DNA of 15,271 nt. Source: Candidatus Thorarchaeota archaeon (GTDB taxonomy: Archaea > Asgardarchaeota > Thorarchaeia > Thorarchaeales > Thorarchaeaceae). This document shows positions 1 to 12,092 of the stretch, piece by piece. The position numbers were made by a program, and so were the translations under genes. The stretch covers positions 1 through 15,271 of the forward strand of contig JAOUFI010000052.1 of NCBI GenBank assembly GCA_029858305.1. The letters are read 5' to 3'. Under the pieces are notes generated by a model. The model made no database searches and was not told the origin of the DNA. It saw nothing but the letters and a program-made list of their open reading frames with translations. How positions within the stretch are numbered: the first letter of the stretch is position 1; the number at the start of each line of letters is the position of its first letter.

Positions 1-10
1 GTAGGATGAT

Positions 11-40
11 ACTACCGGCGGCGCCACTTCTTCTCTAGAA
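11..40 (+). repeat. Direct repeat R1: core ACTACCGGCGGCGCCA (11-26) plus tail type A
   Basis: The 16-nt core is identical to 1501-1516. The tail CTTCTTCTCTAGAA matches the tail of R3 (CTCTTTCTTAAGAA) at 10/14. Confidence 0.9.
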
Positions 41-85
41 ATACTAATATCCATGATTCAATATACGTCCAATTGAGGAGTATCT

Positions 86-1441
86 ATGAGGGTTATCGGT
101 GCAATTATTATCCTAATTCTTATTATCAGTCCAGTATCACTCTTTCTTACGTTTTCATCTCAGATGGAGGGGGATTTAGCAGATCAGAGAATAACTCAGA
201 ATGTAGTGATATCGAATCTGATAGATCACGGACCGATAACGATTATTGGGGATAGTGATTTTGAAACTCAGGGTTGGCCAGGTGGCGGAAACAAAACCAG
301 TCCGTATATAATCGAGGGGTTGTCCATAATATCGAATGTCAGTTGTATCAGGATTGAGGACACCTCGGTCAATTTCGTGATTAGGAACTGCACATTCAGT
401 TCGAACAATACAGAAACACCACAGAGAGGCACATCCATTGACCTATACAATGTCACAAACGGAGTAATTGAGAACTGTACAATGTATGGGCAGAGCTGCG
501 CATTTGAGTCAACATATGCAGAACACACCAGCTTCAGAAGAAACACTGTCTATGACTTCAATGGATATGTAATAAATGGAGATTACCTAGTAAACTGTAG
601 CTTCGAAGACAATACAATGTATGACCTAATTGATGATGTCTTTCTAATACATAACGTTGAGAATTGCACCTTTTCGGGCAATCTGATTTATGATATCCAA
701 GAACCGGTTTTCTTACTTAGTGTTTCCAATGGATGTACAATCAGTTCAAACACGATTATGAATATAGAGGGCTACGGTATACTGATGAGCGATGTTGATG
801 AGTGTTTAATAACAGATAACATGATTTTCAATACAACAGGAGGAATTGGCGTAGGTCCAGTAAACAATACAATTGTTGCTAGAAATGTGGTAGAGCACAG
901 TAGAGTACACGAAGGGATTAGTATCTCAAGAGGCGAGAATTGCAATATCGAGGAGAATACTATCAGCGAAAGCAAACACCAGTCACGTTCAATATCTTTG
1001 TATGAGGTTATTGATTCCAGTCTGTACCACAATCTTGTGTTTAACAATACATTCGATGGGGTGTTGCTTCGCAATGTTGATTATTGTAACATAACATACA
1101 ACGAGATTCATGAAAATGGTCGTGTGGGTATTCGTGTAGATGAGAATTGCACAATGAATCGATTCTTTGGTAATGTTCTCTTTGACAATGCAGATAGTAA
1201 TGCGTTAGATGATGGACTTTCAAATCAGTGGGACGATGGTATAAGTATTGGAAACACTTGGGGAGATTATAACGGAATAGGAGTTTATGTAGTCCCTGGA
1301 TCTGCGGGTTCTGTAGACCATTATCCCACGGGAATTACCTCATCAAGCAATGGCACCGACAATCTGGTCTTAGTATATGTAGGAATAATTGGCGGCGTAG
1401 TGATAGTTCTTGCCCTATTGATATATGTCAGAAAACGCTGA
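86..1441 (+). CDS. Membrane-anchored right-handed parallel beta-helix (NosD/CASH-like) cell-surface protein
   Basis: 451 aa with an N-terminal hydrophobic signal and many N-x-I-x-x-N beta-helix repeats. It has an N-cap GWPGGGNKTSPYIIEGL and a C-cap NQWDDGISIGNTW...DHYP, then a C-terminal TM helix and basic tail YVRKR. GAGGAG RBS at 76-81. Confidence 0.85.
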   Translation: MRVIGAIIILILIISPVSLFLTFSSQMEGDLADQRITQNVVISNLIDHGPITIIGDSDFETQGWPGGGNKTSPYIIEGLSIISNVSCIRIEDTSVNFVIRNCTFSSNNTETPQRGTSIDLYNVTNGVIENCTMYGQSCAFESTYAEHTSFRRNTVYDFNGYVINGDYLVNCSFEDNTMYDLIDDVFLIHNVENCTFSGNLIYDIQEPVFLLSVSNGCTISSNTIMNIEGYGILMSDVDECLITDNMIFNTTGGIGVGPVNNTIVARNVVEHSRVHEGISISRGENCNIEENTISESKHQSRSISLYEVIDSSLYHNLVFNNTFDGVLLRNVDYCNITYNEIHENGRVGIRVDENCTMNRFFGNVLFDNADSNALDDGLSNQWDDGISIGNTWGDYNGIGVYVVPGSAGSVDHYPTGITSSSNGTDNLVLVYVGIIGGVVIVLALLIYVRKR

Positions 1442-1500
1442 AACATATCGGAATGAGAACAATGGCCAAAAGGCTTCCATCAGAGGTGGTGGATAGAGCA

Positions 1501-1542
1501 ACTACCGGCGGCGCCATCATTCATTTTTCACTGTAGTTAATT
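1501..1542 (+). repeat. Direct repeat R2: core ACTACCGGCGGCGCCA (1501-1516) plus tail type B
   Basis: The core is identical to R1. The tail TCATTCATTTTTCACTGTAGTTAATT matches the tail of R4 at 22/26. Confidence 0.92.
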
Positions 1543-1547
1543 GCCAA

Positions 1548-3293
1548 TTACTCTATCTTCTTGGCAGGAATCACGAATCCCCCGGAAACGTAGGCAAACT
1601 CGGTTATCTGTCCAGACTCATCCTTCTTGAAAGTAATACTCAGCAGATCCGAGTCCTTTGATTTGAATCTCATCCCCCGTACTGCTTCGAGTTCAATTGC
1701 TTGCTGTCCGGATGGTACACATATAATTGAATTATCCCCCTTTAGCGAGATTTCTACTATCTGCCCAGCGACATCATATTTTCCAAGAAGCGTCGAGAGA
1801 AATCTTTTGTCACTCATATACTTATCAGGAACTCGTCTAACAAGAATAGGTGGAACTGTATCTTCGAGTTTTATCGAGAATCCAATTACTTCACCATTAG
1901 AATCTATTTGAAAGGTGAGAAGATCCTTGAAATCTAATCGTGTTACCTCAAACTGAAATGTATCATAATGATAATGAGTCAGGGGATATTCTATTGTGCC
2001 ATACTTCACTTTGAGCTCTCCATCCACCTCGCGGAAGTTGAATGTTCCGTAGCCTGGATGATTGTATGTCCCTGCATACTCCTGCAGGTCGAACGTGGGT
2101 TTTGTATTAGTCTTTCGTAGCTTTAGGGATTGATCTCCACTTTCCTTTATTACCTTGGTCTGACTATCCTCTAGAGGTTTTAATAATCCATTCCAATCAA
2201 CGGGGTCCAGTCCTAGAATTTTATCAACTAGATGGTACATTGCAGCGACCTGAAGGTAGGAGTTTGATTGGTTCACAATAGCCATGGCTCCAATGTTTTC
2301 ATCTGGCAAGAACGCCATACGACAGGTTGAACCATCGATTCCCCCACTATGGGTAACCACTCTATATCCTCTATACATTACACCCATCCAACCAAGTGCA
2401 TAGGTATTCATACGGAATACTTTCTGTTCCGGGATATACATACTAAGGATGCCTTGAACGGATTCAATAATGACTGGATCATGAGTCATTCTCAGGTTCT
2501 CTGGGGATACAAGCTGCTTGTTGCCAACCATGCCATTGTTAAGATGAAATATTAGCCACTTTCCCATGTCATCAACACTCGCATTAATGCATCCAGCACC
2601 AGTCGCAGAGTCATTTGCAATAAACTCGCACTCAATTATGTCAAATTCCTCTTTCTGATAGTCAATCTTGTATGGTTTTGCGTAATTTGGGGTCTTTTGC
2701 ATGTCAGTCACAGAGAAGTTTGAGTTTTTCATTCCTAAAGGCTTGAAGATTCGCTTTGAAATGAATTCGTTGTAGCTCACTCCCGACAGCTCCTCGATAA
2801 TCACAGAAGCTGCCAGATACATGAGATTGCAGTACTGATACTTCATACGAATGTCTGCACTCAGGTCCAAGTATGGTAATCTATCGAGTATCTGACGGTA
2901 GGTGAATTCATCATTTATCCAAATCATTTCATGTCGGGGTAGGCCAGTTCTGTGTGACAATATATCCACGATTGTGACACGACTAGATGTAACAAAATCC
3001 TTCAGTCTGAACCGTGGAATGAATTCCTGGATTGGTGTGTTCCATTCAAGTTTTCCTTCATCCACAAGCATCGCGATTGCAGTGCTAGTAAATGACTTCG
3101 TACATGATGCAATGGGATGTGTCGTGTCCTTTGTCATCAGAAGCTTATTTGCTACATCACGATAGCCGAAGCCCTTTGAATAAATGACCTCATTATCTTT
3201 GATCGCAATTGCTGCGATCCCCGGAGCTCTCCATAATTCTAGAGTTTCCATTAGATGATTGTCAAATTTCCTAGTATCAACACTTTGCTTCAA
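1548..3293 (-). CDS. Serine hydrolase of the beta-lactamase/penicillin-binding (AmpC-like) family with a C-terminal DUF3471-like region
   Basis: 581 aa with the SxxK motif (ASCTK), LSHRTGL, YxN (YCN) and HSGG. The segment LQEYAGTYNHPGYG...LTHYHYDTF is typical of DUF3471. TTG start preceded by AGGGGA. No signal peptide. Confidence 0.9.
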   Translation of the reverse strand: MKQSVDTRKFDNHLMETLELWRAPGIAAIAIKDNEVIYSKGFGYRDVANKLLMTKDTTHPIASCTKSFTSTAIAMLVDEGKLEWNTPIQEFIPRFRLKDFVTSSRVTIVDILSHRTGLPRHEMIWINDEFTYRQILDRLPYLDLSADIRMKYQYCNLMYLAASVIIEELSGVSYNEFISKRIFKPLGMKNSNFSVTDMQKTPNYAKPYKIDYQKEEFDIIECEFIANDSATGAGCINASVDDMGKWLIFHLNNGMVGNKQLVSPENLRMTHDPVIIESVQGILSMYIPEQKVFRMNTYALGWMGVMYRGYRVVTHSGGIDGSTCRMAFLPDENIGAMAIVNQSNSYLQVAAMYHLVDKILGLDPVDWNGLLKPLEDSQTKVIKESGDQSLKLRKTNTKPTFDLQEYAGTYNHPGYGTFNFREVDGELKVKYGTIEYPLTHYHYDTFQFEVTRLDFKDLLTFQIDSNGEVIGFSIKLEDTVPPILVRRVPDKYMSDKRFLSTLLGKYDVAGQIVEISLKGDNSIICVPSGQQAIELEAVRGMRFKSKDSDLLSITFKKDESGQITEFAYVSGGFVIPAKKIE

Positions 3294-3375
3294 GCTTCAA
3301 TCCCCTTATTCCTTAGAAAACAGAATTCGAATTGTATTATAAATCAATGACAATCATCTATTTGAGTGATTTCTT

Positions 3376-3405
3376 TCTCCCGACGGCGCCACTCTTTCTT
3401 AAGAA
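3376..3405 (+). repeat. Direct repeat R3: core TCTCCCGACGGCGCCA (3376-3391) plus tail type A
   Basis: The 15 nt CTCCCGACGGCGCCA are identical to R4. The tail resembles that of R1. Confidence 0.9.
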
Positions 3406-3462
3406 TCAATCATGAGAGACTGATTGGTGTTGATGATTCTTTCATTTCTAAGTGGGGATTGT

Positions 3463-5121
3463 TCACGTCTTTCTTCTTCGAAGAAGGACAACTGCAAGAA
3501 GAGAAACGACAATTGCCCCTGTAGAAATTAAGATGATTGCATTGCCTGCAATGACTTCAGCGAACGGGCGATACGGCAAGGCATACCTATCGACAGCCAT
3601 CGCATAACCAGGAACAGCATACTCTCCAGGAAAGAGTATCTCAGTCCAATAGTTACCCATACTGACTCCATCATCCCACTGGTTGTTATGACCATTATCC
3701 TCTGCACCCTTGCCATTGTCAATGAAGTAGTTATAGTAGACCTTGTTTTCGTCAGCAGATCCTCCGAGATACAGACCAATAGTATTTCCCTGAATCGTAT
3801 TGTTTGTTATGATGCAACCAGTACTCAAACTTCCAGGACCAGATATTCCATAGTGAAAATTTCTGATAGTATTCAGATGAACAATTGAGCGATTGCTGAG
3901 GTCAATGCCAGCACTATTGGTTAATCCAGTTCCAATCAATGTGTTGTTGTAGATATAACAATTAACTCCACTATTCACAATGCCATAAGATCCGACCTGT
4001 GCGATGGTATTATGCGAAACCTCGGCATCGTTTCTTCTAGTGTCAATGTAAATACTCCCATTAATGATGTCATTATATGAAATCCTTGCAGATTCTCCCT
4101 TAGCAGTAACGCTGGTGTTGAAAAAGTGGCAGTTGGATATGGTACCATTCTCTACAAACGTTATTCTTGCTGTGGTAAAGTCAGTGAACGTGCAATTCTT
4201 GACAAAAGCGTTCCATGCAGTCTGAAAATCAGGTTCTCCCCCAATATGAAAAATCGGAGGACGATGTATTGAGGGAAATTCTCGTTCAAATGTACAATCA
4301 AGGACCTTTGTATTGTTGCTGCGGACAACCCTGAAGGCCATATCACTGTCCGATGTGAAACTGTTATTCTTTACGAAGAAGTCGGTGCAATATCGAGCAA
4401 ACAATGCCGTACTTGCGCGCCCCCCGCGGATTTCATTGTCCTCTAAATAGATACTCTCACATCTCTCAAGCCATATGTGGTATCCGAGTTCTCCAGTGTT
4501 TCCAAGTGGGTCGCAGAGAAATAGATTGGTATTGATATCGATGTTAGAAGAATAGGATATTTTCAGTCCTTGGGCATAATATAGCTCAATTCTAGAATCC
4601 GCAATTGTGCAATCATTAGAATTTTCTACCATGACCGCGGATTCGCTGCAATTCCATACTCTGCAGTTTTCAATGGTGATGGGTATCGCATCTGCTGCTA
4701 TACCCACAGAGCAGTTCAAGACATCACAGTCCTCAACTTGTGCAATTCCGCTTTGCAGAGAAATTCCAGCATATTCAAGCCAAGGTCCTCGACTACCAGA
4801 AACCATGCAATTGCGGATTGTGTAATAAATGCCCGGGCATCCAGTAATCCTAATACAGGAAGAATCCCATGCTTCATGACCAACTGATGTGATTGATAGG
4901 TCTTCTATTAGAAACGGAGCGCTCTCAGATCCACTGCCATTAAAGCCCAAGCTTATGAAATCGCTAGGAGAGGATATGAGAATCTGTGGATGAGGAACTC
5001 TAATCTGATTTGATGATGCGAAAAATGCATCTGGTCTATTGTTGAATGTCTTCGCATTGAATCCATTGGTCACAAGCATGATTAAGAGGAGCATGATTGT
5101 GAGTAATTGCTTGGATGCCAT
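3463..5121 (-). CDS. Membrane-anchored right-handed parallel beta-helix (NosD-like) surface protein, divergent paralog of 86..1441
   Basis: Same architecture as 86..1441: signal peptide, GFNGSGSESAPFLIEDL N-cap, beta-helix repeats, NQWDDGVSMGNYW...DRY C-cap, TM helix and RRRKT tail. The ORF is open to 5199, but ATG 5121 (MASKQLL) follows GGAGG and puts the signal peptide at the N-terminus. Confidence 0.85.
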   Translation of the reverse strand: MASKQLLTIMLLLIMLVTNGFNAKTFNNRPDAFFASSNQIRVPHPQILISSPSDFISLGFNGSGSESAPFLIEDLSITSVGHEAWDSSCIRITGCPGIYYTIRNCMVSGSRGPWLEYAGISLQSGIAQVEDCDVLNCSVGIAADAIPITIENCRVWNCSESAVMVENSNDCTIADSRIELYYAQGLKISYSSNIDINTNLFLCDPLGNTGELGYHIWLERCESIYLEDNEIRGGRASTALFARYCTDFFVKNNSFTSDSDMAFRVVRSNNTKVLDCTFEREFPSIHRPPIFHIGGEPDFQTAWNAFVKNCTFTDFTTARITFVENGTISNCHFFNTSVTAKGESARISYNDIINGSIYIDTRRNDAEVSHNTIAQVGSYGIVNSGVNCYIYNNTLIGTGLTNSAGIDLSNRSIVHLNTIRNFHYGISGPGSLSTGCIITNNTIQGNTIGLYLGGSADENKVYYNYFIDNGKGAEDNGHNNQWDDGVSMGNYWTEILFPGEYAVPGYAMAVDRYALPYRPFAEVIAGNAIILISTGAIVVSLLAVVLLRRRKT

Positions 5122-5290
5122 TTGCCCACTCGCCTCCGACCAGCAGATGACCTTCTTTATAGAAAAATCTTCTGGATTCGTTGGCTTTCGTTTTCTCATA
5201 TCAGAACTCTACTGGTGCTTCTTTTCTCCTGTGGAAAACCTCATTTGATTTCTGGTACTTTGTATTAGTGATAGCTGGGTGTGAAGAAAA

Positions 5291-5914
5291 TTGAGAGGCG
5301 AAACAAGCATTTCAGATTTGAGAGCGAATGGATTTTACATAGACGAGAAATGCGATGAAATTAATGAAGTACTTAGAAAGAATCCTGAGTATGCGGAGTA
5401 TGAAGTAAGACGCCAACACATAGGAGATGATTGGACCCTCGACCCATACATCATTCAAGATGAAGGTAAAGCTGAGCTGATGCTACTCGCGCCGGAGGAA
5501 GTCAATACTCTAAACGATTCCGAACTCCTTGCCTATATTGATGTGCAAATGAAACGTCTGGACTGTTCAGAGAATTACGCTCTCTTCTTACTGGCTACAC
5601 TGGTACTGGCTCCTACATCAGCGATCAACTCACTAATGGTGATAGTCTATCAATCGACCATAGACATCGCATGAGCATTAGCAACTACATTCGTACTTGT
5701 TTTTCTCACCCTTCTTTCTGGAGCTATGTACTATACAAGACGAAAAACCATGAGGACTAATAGGCGCCAAGTCGATTTGGAAGCTGCTGGGGAGAATTCG
5801 ATATTTCTTTCGGCTTTGCAAAAATTAGCGGCTTTGTCTGATAACAGTGAGTGGAAAGACCAAGAGAATAGAAAAAGACTGCAATACATCAAAAATAGAC
5901 TTGAGAGCATGTAA
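5291..5914 (+). pseudogene. Two-TM hypothetical membrane protein interrupted by an in-frame TGA at 5672-5674
   Basis: ORFs 5291..5674 and 5726..5914 are in the same frame. The 17 intervening codons (ALATTFVLVFLTLLSGA) are open and form a TM helix followed by basic residues (YYTRRK). Confidence 0.75.
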
Positions 5915-5955
5915 CTCCCGACGGCGCCATCACTCATTTTTCACTATTGGTAATT
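5914..5955 (+). repeat. Direct repeat R4: core ACTCCCGACGGCGCCA (5914-5929) plus tail type B
   Basis: The core matches R3 and the tail matches R2 (22/26). Its first base is the last base of the upstream TAA stop. Confidence 0.92.
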
Positions 5956-6045
5956 TCTTATATTGGGTGATGAGGGTGTAATCTTTCTTAAAAAGACTAA
6001 AAGGTTAAGACTAAAGTTGAATATTCCAACAAGCGGTAGTTATCC

Positions 6046-6444
6046 ATGCAATTAGAATCTATGATTCTATATTATTCATTGAATATTGCAGGACTTATTG
6101 GTCAAATATTGTCACTATTGGTATTGATAGCACTTCTCCGCCCTCTGAAAGGATCGATGCGAAGCATCGTATACGCTCTGGGTTCAGCAATCTCATTCTT
6201 TATTGGCAGTTTTTATTTGGCTTTCGTAGCAATCTTTCAATATCTCGCTTCGCCTGCAGCCAATATCCATCTTAGCCTACCACTATCATCCATCACAATT
6301 ACAGTTGGATGGCATAATATTCTTGGAGTTGTCTGTGGTTACCTGCTACTCATCATCGCTATAGTCCAATACAGGAAAGATCATACAAAGCAACTATCAG
6401 TGAATCCACTTGAATCCAATGAATCCTCCTTTTCTTTAGGTTGA
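6046..6444 (+). CDS. Hypothetical integral membrane protein (about 3 TM segments)
   Basis: 132 aa with three long hydrophobic stretches and a polar C-terminal tail. Confidence 0.7.
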   Translation: MQLESMILYYSLNIAGLIGQILSLLVLIALLRPLKGSMRSIVYALGSAISFFIGSFYLAFVAIFQYLASPAANIHLSLPLSSITITVGWHNILGVVCGYLLLIIAIVQYRKDHTKQLSVNPLESNESSFSLG

Positions 6445-6504
6445 GGGAACTGACAGATGAGAAAGAGGGTACAGCCAGAATTTTCAGATATCGACAAGTC
6501 CCTA

Positions 6505-7752
6505 TCATGGAGAATACCGATAATCGAATACATTGTCTAACCAGTCAAACATCACCTGCTGACCGCGAGATATATTGTCAAGCTGACAATGGTCATATGA
6601 ACCATCCTGTTCTAGGGTAAAGACATGAAGCATCTTGTTTTTCGAGCCAATTCTCTGCATGAATGCCCTCGCTTGCTCGAGCATGGCTTCACCTTCGTGC
6701 ATACTAACCAATGCAAGAGTGGGACATGTAATCTTGTGTACTTCTTCGGTGATGATGCTGTCCAGTTTTGGCTTCCAATCCATCCATTCAATGAAATTCG
6801 GACAGCCCCACGACCAGATGCCATAGTAGACAAGACCCCTCAACACCGGAGTGTTCTTCAACTTCTTCTCTATAGCTTTTTCCAGAAGACGGCTCGGCAT
6901 GGCTCTAAACATACGACTCATCTGACTGCTCCTTTGTAGCGCAGGTATGTCTATGAGTGGACTGTCAGCTATTAGAGCTTTAATTCTTGATTCGCCTGTG
7001 GTGACTTGAGAGGCAACATAGCCGCCATAACTATACCCTGAGAGTGCAATTCGTTCATCGACTTCAGGAAGACTTCCCAGCAGTTCGAGAGCTGCAGCGA
7101 AGGGAGCAGAATAGTTCGATCGCTTCACACAATCTGAGTAGAGATGAACTGCTCCGCGATGACCAGGATAATCGAATGTGAAGAAGTTATAGCCTCTACG
7201 CACTGCCGAGAATCCAACAGCTATCAGTATCTCCTCAGCAGAGGAATCGTTCCCACCTACTGCAAACATTGTGGGCCTCGTCAAGTCGGAGTCATCCGGG
7301 CGCATGAAGTAGCCGGGGAGCATCTTTCCCTCGTATGGAACCTCTAGTATCCGAATCTCCGGATTAAATAATGAACACGCTTTTCTGAAGGCATCAACAC
7401 TCCGACGCCAAGTTTCATGAAAACGGTGATGACTTGGAGTACATGCGTACTCAGCAGTTCTCCAGTAGTTTGAAGCTCGGAGAAATGCCTCTCTAGCACT
7501 TATTATATGCTGATCTCTCAGAGACTCATCACCAAGAGCCTCCACACGTTCTGCGAGAGCTGCCCACTCAGATATCCAGCTATCACCATCTTTTTCATCT
7601 ATTCGGCGAGCAGCATAGAGGCATTCTCCAATTTCTGCAGCCTTTTCGCTCATGAACTCTAGAGTCCGGTTGAATGCCCAATCGGTTTCTGGATCCTTGA
7701 ATATGCCAATACTTCTTGGTGCTCTCGCCAAGTCTAGTTTTAGTCGAGCCAT
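6505..7752 (-). CDS. Alpha/beta hydrolase (FrsA / 2,6-dihydropseudooxynicotine-hydrolase-like esterase-peptidase)
   Basis: Nucleophile elbow GYSYG, RASNYWRTAEY, VPYEGKMLPGY and a C-terminal DHCQ catalytic His. The ORF-track GTG start at 7782 lies inside an operator palindrome, so ATG 7752 (MARLK) is preferred. Confidence 0.85.
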   Translation of the reverse strand: MARLKLDLARAPRSIGIFKDPETDWAFNRTLEFMSEKAAEIGECLYAARRIDEKDGDSWISEWAALAERVEALGDESLRDQHIISAREAFLRASNYWRTAEYACTPSHHRFHETWRRSVDAFRKACSLFNPEIRILEVPYEGKMLPGYFMRPDDSDLTRPTMFAVGGNDSSAEEILIAVGFSAVRRGYNFFTFDYPGHRGAVHLYSDCVKRSNYSAPFAAALELLGSLPEVDERIALSGYSYGGYVASQVTTGESRIKALIADSPLIDIPALQRSSQMSRMFRAMPSRLLEKAIEKKLKNTPVLRGLVYYGIWSWGCPNFIEWMDWKPKLDSIITEEVHKITCPTLALVSMHEGEAMLEQARAFMQRIGSKNKMLHVFTLEQDGSYDHCQLDNISRGQQVMFDWLDNVFDYRYSP

Positions 7753-7767
7753 ATTGTGCACCACGAG

Positions 7768-7812
7768 GTGAGCAATGCTCACTTATATGTTAGTGAGCAA
7801 AACTCACTTATA
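7768..7812. promoter_or_regulatory. Two tandem palindromic operators with adjacent TATA-like boxes in a divergent promoter, probably bound by the adjacent TetR
   Basis: GTGAGCA-A-TGCTCAC (7768-7782, perfect 7-1-7) and AGTGAG-CAAAA-CTCACT (7792-7808, 6-5-6) lie 25 bp apart, and each runs into TTATA. Confidence 0.85.
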
Positions 7813-7835
7813 GATGTATCTTTCAGAGTATACGT

Positions 7836-8435
7836 ATGACTCGTCCTCAACAACGTAACAAGGCCGCAAAGATTGAAGCTATTCTTCAGACTGCCATGAT
7901 ACTCTTCAGAACACGAGGGTATCCTGCCACCACAACCAACCAGATAGCAGCAGAGGCAGGAGTGAGTATCGGTCTTCTCTATAAGTACTTCCCGGGCGGC
8001 AAACCTGAGATCGCCAGAAGAACTGTTGAAAATATCGGAGAGGTGATCGTTTCAGAGGAGTTTAGTGATGTGACAATCGAAGATGCTTCAGTTGTTCTAC
8101 GTAGGGCATTGCTTAGGTTCATCAAAGGGCACAGACAGATTTCACCAAACCTTGCTGCCTTTGAAATAGCTTCCTTTGAAGATCCTAAAACTGAAGAGAT
8201 GGGAAATCAACTATATACGATTGGTCAAGAGCCGATATTGATGGTACTAGAGAAACTTACTGGACAAAAGAGGACTGGTAATCTTGAGAAATGGGCTAAC
8301 GTTATCTTTCATGTGATTGATTCTGTTACCCACAGGCATGTATTACATGGGGGACTAATGATGTCTGATGAGATGTTGGCAGATTTTCTAGTCCAAATCA
8401 TAGTAAGAAGCATCCCGGCGGTAATAGGAGAATGA
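7836..8435 (+). CDS. TetR/AcrR family transcriptional regulator
   Basis: N-terminal HTH signature ILQTAMILFRTRGYPATTTNQIAAEAGVSIGLLYKYFPGGK; 199 aa. Confidence 0.95.
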   Translation: MTRPQQRNKAAKIEAILQTAMILFRTRGYPATTTNQIAAEAGVSIGLLYKYFPGGKPEIARRTVENIGEVIVSEEFSDVTIEDASVVLRRALLRFIKGHRQISPNLAAFEIASFEDPKTEEMGNQLYTIGQEPILMVLEKLTGQKRTGNLEKWANVIFHVIDSVTHRHVLHGGLMMSDEMLADFLVQIIVRSIPAVIGE

Positions 8436-8511
8436 ATCCCCTGAGAAACGAACACGTGAAACGAGTGCAATATGTTGAAAATGCACTGACAGGGACTTAT
8501 TCATAGAAAAA

Positions 8512-8820
8512 CTACTTCACAGGTGCCTTTCTATCGACACGCAATTTCTTATCCTCTTCATACTTCTCGATGAATTTCTGCTGGATATTAAAGTAGCTCG
8601 CCTCATAGACCTGATAGTTGTTATCCGAATCAAATCCCCACCCATCCCAATCAACAATCAACTGCATTATTTTGTCATATATCTCTATAATCTCAGGATA
8701 TGGGCACCGTATGTCTAGATTCCCATCTTGAATTGCATCTTCGTACTCTTTTGCCATTTTTTGAGCTCTTTCATGCAGAACATTGATTTCGTCGAAGGGA
8801 TCAGGTTTCGTTCCATTCAT
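8512..8820 (-). CDS. Small acidic helical hypothetical protein
   Basis: 102-aa ORF filling the gap between tetR and the aldo/keto reductase. No recognised motif. Confidence 0.6.
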   Translation of the reverse strand: MNGTKPDPFDEINVLHERAQKMAKEYEDAIQDGNLDIRCPYPEIIEIYDKIMQLIVDWDGWGFDSDNNYQVYEASYFNIQQKFIEKYEEDKKLRVDRKAPVK

Positions 8821-8899
8821 CTTTGTTCAGTACCAGCTAATTCTCTAACTACTCATTAGTCACATCTGGGTAGCTAATAGTCTTTCAAAATCAATAATG

Positions 8900-9778
8900 T
8901 CATTTATAGTCACTTGTACTAGATGCTATTGTCTTCATATCAAACTCATCAACCATAGCATGCATTTCTGCATTAGAAGGGGTTTTATCATAACGAAGGG
9001 CAGCATCCAACATCTTGGGTAAAAGCCGAATGTCGCCTGCTGTAATCAGAAAACTATCCTTAAGACTCAATGACCAATGGACCGACTTGTCAATCGCATT
9101 TTGATTCTCTAATGGTTCATAGAAGTAGGTGTTGTAAGTCGGTGGACGTTGACCCCAGGGCTGCCGAACAATGGACTGTATAGTCTGCACTGCTACCCTA
9201 CGCTTGCGGCAAAGCTCCACTAAATCATTGAAGTATGCCGCGTAACGAGATTTCTGCATCTGCAAATAGTTGTATGGTAGCATGACTGAATCGAATTCAA
9301 ATCGTTCCAAACTTTGTTTGTGCATTGCTGGTACGTTATCACCATGGCCTGTCACTCCTAGAAATCGTACTAGACCCTTGTCACGTGCTTCAATAAAGGC
9401 CTCCAAAGCCCCTCCGGGACCCATCACTCTTTGCCAACCTACTGGATTAGTCAACCCATGCATCTGCCAAAGGTCAATATAATCAACTCCCATGATGCTC
9501 AAAGATTTCTCCAAATCATCCTTTGCTCCTTCGTATGATCGCTTGCGCGACTTTGTTGCAAGGAAAAAATCACCACGATGTTTTTTCATCCACAATCCAA
9601 TGCATTTCTCAGCATTTCCGTACATGGGAGCTGTATCAATATGATTCACACCATATTTCAGCAATATTTTAAGAACATGATCTGCTTCAGTCTGTGTCGC
9701 GTTATTCAATGCATACGACCCAAAGATAACACGCGTGCTAGCATGTTTCGTACGACCAAAAGAGTTTAGGGGTATCAT
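8900..9778 (-). CDS. Aldo/keto reductase
   Basis: GVNHIDTAPMYG (catalytic Asp/Tyr), FLATK (Lys), DYIDLWQMH (His) and GLVRFLGVTGH. GGAGG upstream on the minus strand. Confidence 0.95.
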   Translation of the reverse strand: MIPLNSFGRTKHASTRVIFGSYALNNATQTEADHVLKILLKYGVNHIDTAPMYGNAEKCIGLWMKKHRGDFFLATKSRKRSYEGAKDDLEKSLSIMGVDYIDLWQMHGLTNPVGWQRVMGPGGALEAFIEARDKGLVRFLGVTGHGDNVPAMHKQSLERFEFDSVMLPYNYLQMQKSRYAAYFNDLVELCRKRRVAVQTIQSIVRQPWGQRPPTYNTYFYEPLENQNAIDKSVHWSLSLKDSFLITAGDIRLLPKMLDAALRYDKTPSNAEMHAMVDEFDMKTIASSTSDYK

Positions 9779-9917: not shown

Positions 9918-10619
9918 CTACTCTGGAATATCAACAAGTGGTTGCAGGCTCGAATCAGGATTTCTGCAGGTATAGGTCATGTTTAAGCTGGAATCAAGAG
10001 GATCATACTCGACAATCTTATCGTCAAGATTCTTGATTCTCCGGCAGATGCCAATAACATCATGCGGTTCGAAACCAAGTGTTTCAGCTACCAAAAGTAA
10101 GTCGGTTCTGTGTCGTTTCCTAACAATATCCCTTACAAGTTGCTCCCAACGCGTCTTGAACGACAATCGAAGGCTTGACAAAGCAACGAAATCAAGTAAC
10201 CAAGTATTTGCAGGGTTCCCAAGGGGGGTCGGTTCACCATCTCGTTTCCCATTTAGAGTAGGCATCTTGACTTTTCGAGACGCCCTGATACCTGCGACGA
10301 ATCCACTTGTTCCAGAAATTTTGGCATACCAATCGGGGTCCCGAGTCTGATGTGCACTGCTATCAATACTTAGATAACCTTCATCCTTCCAGAATGGCAC
10401 TGAAAACTCAGGATCCTCCTTCCATCGTTCCCATTTGACATAACGAGACTCGTCAAGATTTCGCATTCTCTCCCGTGCTTTTTCCGCATCTGGAACGAGT
10501 ATACTGTTTGAAAGTCCAATAAGTAACCTTTCAGCAATGCCTTCCTTTCCCGATAGAAGCTCTTCCTCTGCCTTCTTCAAAGCACCCTCCGCTCGCCTAA
10601 TGACGTCAGGATAGCTCAT
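9918..10619 (-). CDS. Hypothetical protein, possibly with a C-terminal winged-helix-like region
   Basis: Long ORF open to 10640; ATG 10619 follows GGTGGTG. The C-terminal segment TDLLLVAETLGFEPHDVIGICRRI is HTH-like (weak inference). Confidence 0.65.
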   Translation of the reverse strand: MSYPDVIRRAEGALKKAEEELLSGKEGIAERLLIGLSNSILVPDAEKARERMRNLDESRYVKWERWKEDPEFSVPFWKDEGYLSIDSSAHQTRDPDWYAKISGTSGFVAGIRASRKVKMPTLNGKRDGEPTPLGNPANTWLLDFVALSSLRLSFKTRWEQLVRDIVRKRHRTDLLLVAETLGFEPHDVIGICRRIKNLDDKIVEYDPLDSSLNMTYTCRNPDSSLQPLVDIPE

Positions 10620-10748
10620 AGACACCACCGCCAAAAACATCTAATGATACATCTCCGGAGGACCAAATAAGATTGGTGCTACTCCCCTAAGACAGTAAGA
10701 TTGGGAAATGGGTACTTATCAGAAGCTTATCGTGAAACACCATAAGAA

Positions 10749-11621
10749 TTATAGCATTCTTTCAAGCAAAGTCAGAGCCCACTCCTCATCTTCATTTTCA
10801 TCCAGCTGAACCCAGTCTAGATTGTGCATAGTTTCTACATAATCTGTTTCGAAGGCCACGAAGATAGAGGTACATCCACTCTTCGAGGCTATGTCTATAT
10901 GATACGACAGATGATCTAGGAACCCTGTCCTATCAGAAGCGTAGATTGTGAAAGACCATTGCATCCCAGAACTGACATCACGGGCGAATCCCAATGAGAA
11001 CGATGTGAGCTTACCAGCACGCGTCTGAACCCAAAACCGTGCAGTCGAACCTATTTTGTTAAGACCCTTTGGCGTGACATCGAATGCCTTCCAGTCGTGG
11101 ATGAGGATGTTGAATGGAATCAAGTTGGCATCAATTAGATCTTGACACACCTCATCCGCAGAAACCTCAAGTAGTGGGAAACCTCTCATCCGCCAAGAGA
11201 TTTCAGATGGGTTCTCCTGCCAATGAACAGCAAGGTCGAATTTTCTCTTCATTCCTACTACTTCAGCAAGATGCAATGATGTTTCATTACCTACTGAAGT
11301 TGTATATCGAATGCACTTTACTGGAATGCTCTTTGCAAGCTGAACAACATACTGGGTCAGGCTAGTTGCAAGTCCCTTTCCTCGATGATTTGGATGTACT
11401 CGAAGAGCCTCCATCCATCCAGTTTTTCCATCATCGATTACTCGTAGATTAGCTAGGGCAATAATATGACCGTCATACTCAACACCCACAGGATAGGAGT
11501 TCTTGTCTTTCAGCCAAGTGTCAAAATAGTAGGGGATATAGTCATGTCCCTCCCATGTGTGCCGTGCAATTTCAAGAATGTCATCCTTATCTGATTCTCT
11601 AAGCGGTCGTATATCGTTCAT
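10749..11621 (-). CDS. GNAT family N-acetyltransferase with a C-terminal extension
   Basis: N-terminal IRPLRESD and the acetyl-CoA motif A LRVHPNHRGKGLAT. Start placed at ATG 11621 (ORF open to 11705). Confidence 0.9.
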   Translation of the reverse strand: MNDIRPLRESDKDDILEIARHTWEGHDYIPYYFDTWLKDKNSYPVGVEYDGHIIALANLRVIDDGKTGWMEALRVHPNHRGKGLATSLTQYVVQLAKSIPVKCIRYTTSVGNETSLHLAEVVGMKRKFDLAVHWQENPSEISWRMRGFPLLEVSADEVCQDLIDANLIPFNILIHDWKAFDVTPKGLNKIGSTARFWVQTRAGKLTSFSLGFARDVSSGMQWSFTIYASDRTGFLDHLSYHIDIASKSGCTSIFVAFETDYVETMHNLDWVQLDENEDEEWALTLLERML

Positions 11622-11720
11622 TCGGAAGACCTGGATGAAGGATATTTCTTTCAGAGATTTGAAGTAAGTGATACGAACCCAAAAGTCTGCGTCCCTAGAG
11701 CTCAAACTTAATTTTTCATA

Positions 11721-12092
11721 CTAATCCCCTGTAGGAGTCACATCCTTTCCCTCAACCATCAAGATTGCAGTGCGTACCGGAGCTCTTGTACGATGGGATA
11801 GTCCTAGTGGCACTAGGAACCCTTGCCCAGGCTTCAAATCTACCGTTCTGTCCCCTAAATCGATGTGTAATAGACCAGCAATGACATAGAAGAACTCATC
11901 CTCGTGGTCATGCTTGTGCCAATGAAATTCACCGTGTATTACTCCTAATCGGATTACGCAGTTGTTTACCTCACAGAGGGAGAAGTTCTGCCAGTCCTTT
12001 TGACATTCTTCAATCAATCTGGGGATATCTATCAGCTCGAGAGCCTCAAATTTGATATCGGTATCAATTGAATAGCGATTCTGGTTATCCAT
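11721..12092 (-). CDS. Cupin domain protein
   Basis: Cupin motif 1 GEFHWHKHDHEDEFFYVIAG and motif 2 PGQGFLVPLGLSHRT. Confidence 0.92.
   Translation of the reverse strand: MDNQNRYSIDTDIKFEALELIDIPRLIEECQKDWQNFSLCEVNNCVIRLGVIHGEFHWHKHDHEDEFFYVIAGLLHIDLGDRTVDLKPGQGFLVPLGLSHRTRAPVRTAILMVEGKDVTPTGD

Follow-up and report, generated by a model that had tools for sequence, protein, structure and literature searches.

The window analysed here is a stretch of 15,271 nucleotides from a Candidatus Thorarchaeota archaeon (NCBI GenBank assembly GCA_029858305.1, contig JAOUFI010000052.1). Its left part carries four co-oriented short repeats, R1 to R4, and three units of accessory genes stacked between them. 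The source genome, called G000 in the following, consists of 205 contigs with 3.04 Mb and 43% GC and is 88.9% complete. The window opens at a contig end, and the tRNA-Asn gene that anchors the array lies just beyond it on the adjoining contig C113. The repeats were found to be pieces of the 3' end of a tRNA-Asn gene, and units are gained, lost and reordered at them. The repeats and the cargo of the three units are as follows.

11..34, + strand: R1, tRNA-Asn 3'-end fragment (core 12-26, tRNA positions 62-76) with a pyrimidine tail; motif match
86..1441, + strand: cargo of unit 1, right-handed beta-helix protein (NosD-like; Beta_helix/NosD) with a C-terminal membrane anchor, fam19; Pfam
1501..1543, + strand: R2, fragment with the 'B-type' tail common to R4 and a copy in the genome G007; motif match and tail alignment
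1548..3293, - strand: cargo of unit 2, beta-lactamase-fold serine hydrolase with DUF3471, fam33; Pfam
3376..3399, + strand: R3, fragment with a pyrimidine tail; motif match
3463..5199, - strand: cargo a of unit 3, second beta-helix protein (NosD-like), fam19, also in G007; Pfam and blastn
5291..5914, + strand: cargo b of unit 3, fam1 membrane protein of about 210 residues; open reading frame
5914..5956, + strand: R4, the window's final fragment, tail of the B type; motif match and tail alignment

A first-pass annotation of the window had proposed four co-oriented copies of a degenerate 16-mer. The window was searched for this motif with up to 2 mismatches allowed. Matches were obtained at 11, 1501, 3376 and 5914, all of them exact and on the + strand, with spacings of 1490, 1875 and 2538 bp, and no fifth copy appeared at up to 2 mismatches. 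Only 0.01 copies are expected by chance, and four matches were reached in none of 200 shuffles, so the four copies stand as proposed. The extent of the 16-mer had to be corrected. Its core is real, but its first letter lies outside the conserved block, which runs about 8 nt past the CCA. As matches to the 16-mer, R1 and R2 are identical and R3 is nearly identical to R4. Beyond the motif, R2 and R4 share a 43-nt stretch with 86% identity, and R1 and R3 share a different tail.

When all 205 contigs of G000 were searched, the motif was confined to this locus. The sole extra match, at C113:97-112, is the same copy as R1, since the end of the reverse complement of C113 overlaps the window at 3-122. 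The reverse-complemented C113 extends the window upstream, and an assembled Logan contig of the run X1 bridges the same join of C113 and C48 (loose end at place 3). The left flank of R1 is a truncated gene of the family fam23, which is described below.

The gene context across R1 to R4 is as the first-pass annotation had given it, and the boundaries are as tight. R4 and the TAA stop at 5912-5914 have one base in common, and the 43-nt tail shared by R2 and R4 stops 5 bp from the stop codon at 1548-1550. A role of the repeats as promoters or terminators was set aside, since their orientation is constant in a varied gene context and the comparative data explain the repeat. Each interval had been said to hold complete accessory genes. 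The beta-helix, hydrolase and membrane-protein reading frames are indeed present, but the membrane gene contains an in-frame TGA. This gene belongs to fam1, which has two predicted membrane helices and no known family, is the commonest cassette gene and has a stop that abuts its fragment. The copy in the window is otherwise full-length, and its single TGA at 5672-5674 could mark a pseudogene, a sequencing error or recoding. As a separate observation, ARAGORN calls a tRNA-SeC on contig C133 of G000.

Folding of the attC type was examined with seven DNA folds around R1 to R4 on both strands. The z values ranged from -1.27 to +1.29, showing no excess stability. The sites are therefore not attC-like, in agreement with the first-pass annotation; the conserved block is a non-palindromic, tRNA-derived 23-mer.

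The sites derive from the 3' end of tRNA-Asn

A tRNA gene upstream of the window had been envisaged in the first-pass annotation, and ARAGORN called a tRNA-Asn(gtt) at C113 c[381,544], which corresponds to the window-equivalent positions -421..-258 on the + strand. This tRNA-Asn(GUU) has the same orientation as the repeats and ends 258 bp before the window start. Compared with R4, its 3' end has 3 differences in 16 positions. The single-intron model of ARAGORN was poor for this gene, and three short introns were found by enumerating coordinate deletions: one of 28 nt that follows position 37, one of about 29 nt within the variable region and one of 30 nt within the T-stem, with intron ends that are ambiguous by 1-3 nt. 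With the introns removed, all 17 scored pairs of the acceptor, anticodon and T-stems form (17/17), and the loops of the cloverleaf are CTGTTAA (anticodon loop) and TTCGAGC (T-loop). The Rfam tRNA model misses this intron-rich gene at the gathering score and gives 13.3 bits at a loose threshold.

In congeneric genomes, the motif is literally the 3' end of tRNA-Asn. Eleven true tRNA ends were identified there, belonging to genes with 0-4 introns; the tRNA-Asn of G018 is intron-less, and those of other congeners have up to four introns, one of them in the T-loop. A survey of tRNA-Asn(GUU) in G000 and the loci L014, L017, L018, L020, L021, L023, L025, L026, L030 and L031 placed the introns of the congeners after position 37 and in the D-arm/anticodon-stem region, the variable region, the T-stem and the T-loop.

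The extent of the site was read from 34 fragments of 15 genomes. The conserved block begins sharply at tRNA position 62, comprises positions 62-76 with the discriminator and CCA, and continues for about 8 nt into a pyrimidine-rich flank, about 23 bp in total. High information content extends from position 0 to about +22, and upstream of this it drops to near zero. The B-type tail of R4 resembles the native downstream flank of tRNA-Asn in some congeners. The fragments are often unlike the resident tRNA: in G000, the tRNA reads ..CTCCCGATGG.. and the fragments read CTACCGGCGG and CTCCCGACGG, and in G015 a tRNA with CTCCC is accompanied by four fragments with CTACC. Such mismatches are expected if the units bring their own copy of the site, and they argue against a duplication of the host target.

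These results show that the repeats are sites derived from the 3' end of tRNA-Asn(GUU) and that the array is anchored on that gene. The new kind of site sequence implied by the first-pass annotation was thus not borne out.

Units are exchanged at the sites in related genomes

The distribution of the motif was analysed in 41 genomes: G000, 24 congeners, one genome of a sister family and 15 genomes of other families. A 15-mer pattern was present in 17 of the 41, G000 included. It was found in 15/24 congeners, in the 1/1 genome of the sister family (at the tRNA end only) and in 0/15 genomes of other families, whose tRNA-Asn sequences presumably differ. Nineteen loci were mapped. In the maps, one conserved block lies 5' of the tRNA and another lies distally (GNAT, cupin and others). 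The array enclosed by these two blocks is variable, and in it small units are separated by co-oriented fragments as in the window. The 27 units have a median length of 747 bp and range from 283 to 3114 bp. Exactly one open reading frame (ORF) of at least 60 residues was found in 21 of them, two in 3, three in 2 and none in 1. Their cargo is diverse (S-adenosylmethionine (SAM) methyltransferase, Zn ribbon, TPR, PRC barrel, M1 peptidase, PLD nuclease, SDR, APH kinase, cation efflux) and looks like ordinary accessory genes. The orientation of the ORF relative to the site varies among families and is fixed within a family; fam1 runs with the site and fam10 against it.

When public metagenome contigs were scanned with the core and tail, 92 stretches were obtained. 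Twenty-four of these had a GC content below 0.50, and at least 12 of the 24, on independent contigs, carry two or more sites in arrays comparable to this one; one metagenome array lies on a 203-kb contig. In some loci, the tRNA-Asn, together with any fam23 gene present, is inverted relative to the fragments: G015 (L014), G002 (L021), G021 (L019+L020) and the metagenome loci L203 and L228. Such an arrangement implies inversions that ended at the sites or close to them. Nearest to the inverted tRNA-Asn lies a fam22 unit at 14792-15781 of L014 (G015), 1-778 of L020 (G021) and 8286-9266 of L203. The encoded protein is a nuclease of the PLD family that has a zinc ribbon at its N-terminus, and the stop of the gene adjoins a fragment.

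Gain, loss or reordering of units exactly at the repeat had been named as the comparison that would bear on the cassette reading, and such changes were observed. When 20 loci were compared with each other by blastn, 339 unique alignment ends lay at most 5 kb from a site, and 37 of these fell within 10 nt of one. Random placement gave an expectation of 4.0 ends and a maximum of 12 in 1000 draws; the test measures enrichment among loci that are related and not independent samples. G000 and its closest relative G007 have 89% identity over 4.3 kb upstream of the tRNA and share the segment R2-hydrolase-R3-beta-helix (80% over 3560 bp), with homology from offset 0 of R2 in both. The 1.87-kb unit of the fam33 hydrolase lies between two fragments in G007 also. 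Left of R2, G007 has a Zn-ribbon unit and G000 has R1 and the first beta-helix gene. The units of fam1, fam10, fam13, fam15 and fam17 have different neighbours across genomes, and those of fam1, fam10, fam13 and fam15 also occur in different orders.

An empty and an occupied site were found in the metagenome contigs L196 and L195, which have 99.84% identity over a flank of 6117 bp and 99% over the tRNA. In L196, the flank follows a bare tRNA end; in L195, two units (413 and 682 bp from site to site) lie between the tRNA end and the flank. The duplicated site shows up as a 25-nt overlap of the two alignments. Eight runs were found, all as assembled contigs, and X1 to X4 are used here; those of X1 were made with another assembler, and X1 may be the source sample. 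One X1 contig follows the window from 3 to 5928, continues with 1216 letters absent from the window and then resumes with 5914-6454, with the core on both sides. This variant is one extra unit at R4. Alternative flanks were also seen, an X1 contig joining a different left flank exactly at base 12 and contigs of X2 and X4 diverging exactly at 5914. A joint 36->8543 in X4, with a side of 28 letters, and window parts that lack cover were excluded from the evidence. Turnover at the sites is thus shown at three levels: among species, among strains that are nearly identical, and inside the probable source sample. The breakpoints at the sites support the earlier proposal that units of gene size are stacked at one locus and that the repeats are the joints at which they recombine.

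The pattern is not restricted to tRNA-Asn. In G000, co-oriented copies of the last 15 nt of the respective tRNA lie 0.2-3.5 kb downstream at no fewer than 10 further loci (Tyr, Glu, Leu (x2), Ala, Gly, Ser-like, the C111 tRNA, a pair on C180 and an Arg-like cluster). These 3' copies mostly start within the T-loop. The intervening ORFs are small, and none is recombinase-like by length or sequence in ORF lists inspected by eye only. The Arg-like cluster lies at C34 45911-49983 (- strand) and consists of five near-identical tRNA copies about 1 kb apart, with anticodons read as CCG, AAC, GCG and GCG, one bare 3' fragment and one damaged acceptor end, and with small membrane-protein ORFs between the copies. 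Accretion of the same kind seems to have occurred here, with an identity block that takes in nearly the entire tRNA.

Recombinases, a candidate endonuclease and a proposed mechanism of accretion

A partial tRNA 3' copy beyond inserted DNA is the textbook scar of site-specific integration, and repeated integration at one tRNA stacks elements with partial tRNAs between them (10.1101/2020.12.28.424599, PMC9897764, PMC6563490), successive events pushing older elements inward (10.1101/2020.12.28.424599, PMC9897764). Integrase-less derivatives that keep the sites are known as cis-mobilizable elements (CIMEs), described in bacteria together with accretion and mobilisation (PMC5704250). Integration at tRNA genes also occurs in Asgard archaea (PMC8813620). 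With partial tRNA copies being a classic integration scar, the 'undescribed gene-capture system' of the first-pass annotation was overstated.

We consider it somewhat probable that the repeats are attachment-site scars of tRNA-Asn at which the units accreted, with a recombinase acting in trans. The order at the locus is intact tRNA-Asn, LAGLIDADG-type gene stump, R1, unit, R2, unit, R3, unit, R4 and flank. A small unit with one copy of the site would enter by recombination, either at the tRNA end or at a copy already present. Each insertion would duplicate the site around the unit, older units would move outward, and recombination between two copies would remove units; circular intermediates and this direction of events belong to the model. 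The units would be integrase-less and mobilised in cis or in trans like CIMEs, reduced to single accessory genes, and the enzyme would be supplied in trans, our first choice being a tRNA-targeting tyrosine integrase of elements outside the genome bins. This scheme fits the constant extent of the identity block, the constant orientation of the sites and the fixed orientation of unit families relative to the site.

For the enzyme, 28 congeneric genomes were scanned with PF00589, which matched at 21 places in 9 of them. As a side observation, G000 and 19/28 congeners had no match to PF00589, so that this model revealed no recombinase, even of the Xer type. In G018, one integrase contig begins with a tRNA-type end, from T-loop to CCA, beside the integrase gene. 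Classical tRNA-targeting integrases thus exist in the genus, probably on poorly binned elements, and for this reason recombination in trans was taken as the most likely mechanism.

Several results weigh against an integrase acting in trans at the tRNA end. The claim that the window holds no recombinase was confirmed and extends to the whole of G000, where PF00589, PF00239, PF16795 and PF01867 gave no match. None of the 21 PF00589 places (0/21) is on an array contig, and the genomes with large arrays, G014, G015 and G002, have no such match. A tblastn search with 21 ORFs from 12 integrase loci found nothing in any array locus. Pfam detected no integrase in the proteins of the array units, the flanks and the neighbouring genes, and no recombinase, replication or capsid domain in the array-unit proteins tested. 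A free or viral attP donor was not found when IMG/VR was searched with a 19-mer, which matched one unrelated contig of 55% GC without a tRNA; the 15-mer matched at least 120 stretches, which were set aside uninspected as too unspecific. R1 abuts a truncated resident gene and not a unit end, and no fragment lies at the right edge of a 4-kb segment specific to G000 (6046..9778). With at least 10 different tRNAs targeted, many specific integrases would be needed, and the loci with an inverted tRNA-Asn require extra inversions. No circular form was seen in the runs, whose contigs cannot show circles or rare forms.

The gene stump between tRNA-Asn and R1 belongs to fam23. On the minus strand of this stretch, the last 63 residues of a fam23 protein are encoded, with 59% identity (E 6e-27), matched clearly to the copy of G015 and weakly to that of G002. 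The fam23 proteins have 565-933 residues, with a long helical N-terminal part and a predicted double LAGLIDADG fold at the C-terminus; they gave no meaningful sequence match in Pfam or PDB. The AlphaFold model was built from a 4-sequence alignment with a mean predicted local distance difference test (pLDDT) score of 59.7 and is confident only in the C-terminal ~280 residues (pLDDT 70-95). When this part was searched with Foldseek, 12 matches with E <=1e-3 were obtained, and the matches listed were all LAGLIDADG endonucleases: VDE/PI-SceI, I-Tsp061I and the TliVMA intein, with I-DmoI and PI-PfuI at weaker E-values. The target-normalised template modelling (TM) score was about 0.5 against single-chain archaeal LAGLIDADG enzymes. 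The acidic residues that end both motif helices are invariant in the four sequences (4/4; S-D and D-G), and we take these helices to be the LAGLIDADG motifs and these residues to be the catalytic acids. The model, which has moderate confidence values, fits the double alpha-beta-beta-alpha-beta-beta-alpha LAGLIDADG fold.

Matches to fam23 were found in 17/28 genomes at up to 7 places per genome, with many short open frames. The gene is convergent to tRNA-Asn in G015, G002, G020 and the metagenome locus L228. Among 24 copies, 11 end at most 60 nt from the 3' end of a convergent tRNA; ARAGORN named these ends Asn, Phe, Ser and Arg-CCG and left two unnamed, and the 'Ser' end matches the tRNA-Phe end of G000. 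Three more copies have a tRNA-Asn about 600 bp away. In a tree, the copies group by the neighbouring tRNA, which may simply be orthology among congeners. At L273 (G012:C331) 865-3188, ARAGORN reports a tRNA-Phe with a 2232-nt 'intron' that holds a fam23 gene; this is more likely a tRNA-Phe gene followed by a convergent fam23 unit and a downstream 3' fragment. Free-standing and element-borne LAGLIDADG endonucleases resemble fam23 in the double fold, the multiple, patchy and often truncated copies and the position beside a highly conserved RNA gene. In comparison with relatives such as I-DmoI, I-Tsp061I, PI-SceI and the HeimM2 element (PMC8813620), fam23 differs by its length of 565-933 residues and its long helical N-terminus, the lack of a Pfam or PDB sequence match and a position outside any intron or intein.

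It is conceivable, though in our view unlikely, that not an integrase but a homing-type endonuclease of the fam23 family cuts the ~23-bp site at the tRNA 3' end. Units would then be joined by ligation of compatible ends cut in both partners or by break repair that copies from another array, and either route, speculative as it is, would rebuild the site on both sides. The convergent position at tRNA-Asn, the stump beside R1 in G000, the spread over 17 genomes, the predicted fold with its invariant acidic residues and the clustering of copies at and by tRNA ends point in this direction. The block would also have a size that suits a LAGLIDADG target. For an element of Heimdallarchaeum, it has been proposed that a homing-endonuclease homologue encoded next to a tRNA gene serves site-specific integration (PMC8813620). 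Against this, fam23 had no match in the array genomes G014, G018, G006, G017, G011 and G022, and G000 has only the stump. Homing as it is known leaves no direct repeats, the structure model has a mean pLDDT of 59.7 from four aligned sequences, and the clustering by tRNA may reflect orthology. Moreover, the fam23 genes adjacent to tRNA-Asn are not bracketed by two co-oriented sites. A complete integrase-independent cassette system of the Thorarchaeota, in which a tRNA-end-specific fam23 protein cuts the site and single-gene units are pasted, excised or copied, is slightly less probable still. If it were true, such a system would amount to an archaeal counterpart of integrons or of the switching of mating-type cassettes, with a domesticated homing endonuclease as the driving enzyme.

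Two explanations without mobility of single units or without a dedicated enzyme were also weighed. That the units are decayed leftovers of large integrated elements such as proviruses or plasmids is improbable to us. Tandem integration followed by decay is documented (10.1101/2020.12.28.424599, PMC5704250), as are elements of 9-23 kb (PMC9897764), and the fam23 stump, the in-frame TGA of fam1 and the presence of degenerate fragments would agree with it. However, 21 of the 27 units are filled by exactly one full-length ORF and the largest has 3.1 kb. Domains of integrases, replication proteins or capsids are missing from the Pfam-tested unit proteins, and no remnant of an integrase came up by tblastn in any array locus. 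The order in which these compact units recur differs from array to array, and strains of 99.8% identity differ by two whole units. Reshuffling by the cell's own homologous or microhomology-mediated recombination between the short repeats, following DNA exchange between strains, is a little less probable again. A deletion between direct repeats of 23-25 bp would give both the L195/L196 difference and the X1 variant, and the lack of any recombinase in our searches is in its favour. Such recombination leaves unexplained how each new gene was first flanked by a tRNA 3' fragment, why the left edge is sharp at tRNA position 62 in 34 fragments and why many tRNAs show this pattern.

Casposons target the 3' ends of tRNA genes for insertion, which gives rise to duplications of about 15 bp. 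It is very improbable that the repeats are target-site duplications made by a transposon or a casposon-type integrase, although R1 equals R2 and R3 nearly equals R4, and although target-site duplications and tandem casposons have been described (PMC6563490). This explanation was dropped, since G000 has no Cas1 (PF01867), the three window units have no terminal inverted repeats inside, and the fragments often differ from the resident tRNA, as in G000 and G015.

The preferred explanation, accretion at the tRNA end by a recombinase in trans, was compared with known systems. Of the traits of a tRNA-anchored island, an intact tRNA, co-oriented partial copies and a content that varies among relatives with breakpoints were found; an adjoining integrase was not. 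The tycheposon islands of Prochlorococcus (10.1101/2020.12.28.424599) are alike in the intact tRNA at one end, the partial copies between insertions, the older units pushed outward, the several tRNA anchors per genome and the accessory cargo. They have a tyrosine or large serine recombinase, usually replication genes, and cargo of up to 10 kb or more, whereas here 0/27 units show a recombinase or replication gene, the median length is 747 bp and the host is an Asgard archaeon. CIMEs share the retained attL and attR, the loss of the integrase, the tandem position at a tRNA 3' end and mobility by the integrase of another element. They are decayed integrative and conjugative or integrative and mobilizable elements (ICEs/IMEs) of several kb (PMC5704250), in contrast to the single intact genes found here that recur in many genomes. 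Flanking sites, the absence of integration and transfer genes and tandem stacking agree with the published definition, which adds a decayed ICE/IME origin; a helper element was not identified here.

Integrons, including archaeal integrons and clusters of attC sites lacking an integrase (CALINs), which are reported to be enriched in Asgard archaea (PMC9668308), have tandem cassettes mostly with a single ORF, a short recombination site, arrays without a neighbouring integrase and cassettes shuffled between genomes. They differ from the arrays described here, where the site is a non-folding, tRNA-derived 23-bp sequence and not an attC hairpin, intI and attI are lacking, the gene orientation varies relative to the site and the anchor is a tRNA gene. 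The tRNA-integrated elements of Thermococcaceae (PMC9897764) and Thaumarchaeota (PMC6563490) have the same 3'-distal tRNA target and partial copies as attR, and in them inversions can put full and partial tRNA copies on opposite strands; these elements have ~9-23 kb or are proviruses, ICEs or casposons with an integrase of their own. In the accessible literature, sub-kilobase cassette arrays delimited by tRNA fragments were not found for Asgard archaea, although supplementary tables might list small integrase-less units, and LAGLIDADG genes beside tRNA genes as seen here were not found described in Asgard. Site-specific accretion at a tRNA 3' end is a known principle, and integrase-less single-gene units at many tRNAs are unusual.

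The cassette-array reading was largely right in the form of a tRNA-anchored accretion that is reduced to integrase-less single-gene units and is pervasive in a genus of Thorarchaeota; for this genus, the placement in the Asgard archaea also holds. Asgard archaea have large and flexible gene repertoires, and the route by which accessory genes are gained and lost is little known. Here, a whole genus has hot spots beside tRNA genes at which single accessory genes for surface beta-helix proteins, hydrolases, methyltransferases and transporters are added, lost and reordered at a 23-bp joint, even between strains of 99.8% identity. The grammar is that of an integron, yet the site is a piece of a tRNA and no integrase was found. 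Two candidates for the enzyme are at hand, the sporadic tyrosine integrases and the new LAGLIDADG family at tRNA ends. In these genomes, the fragments and the tRNAs with multiple introns will mislead the automatic annotation of tRNAs and islands.

The distal part of the window

Beyond R4, the window contains two further regions.

6046..9778: segment without a counterpart in the closest relative G007, with a membrane protein, an alpha/beta hydrolase, TetR, a small ORF and an aldo-keto reductase
9918..12092, - strand: conserved distal flank with fam35, a GNAT acetyltransferase (fam12) and a cupin protein (fam3)

The genes of the distal flank also lie beyond the arrays in G007, G015, G017, G014 and G022 and in metagenome contigs. 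Within the first region, two copies of a 20-nt sequence containing a palindrome, 25 nt apart, were found at 7768-7812. They lie between the divergent genes of the alpha/beta hydrolase (6505-7782, - strand) and TetR (7836-8435, + strand), and the pair is probably a TetR operator. At 8437, immediately behind the TetR stop, contigs of X1 and X3 depart from the window sequence and continue with the same 30 letters; this structural variant is not at a tRNA fragment.

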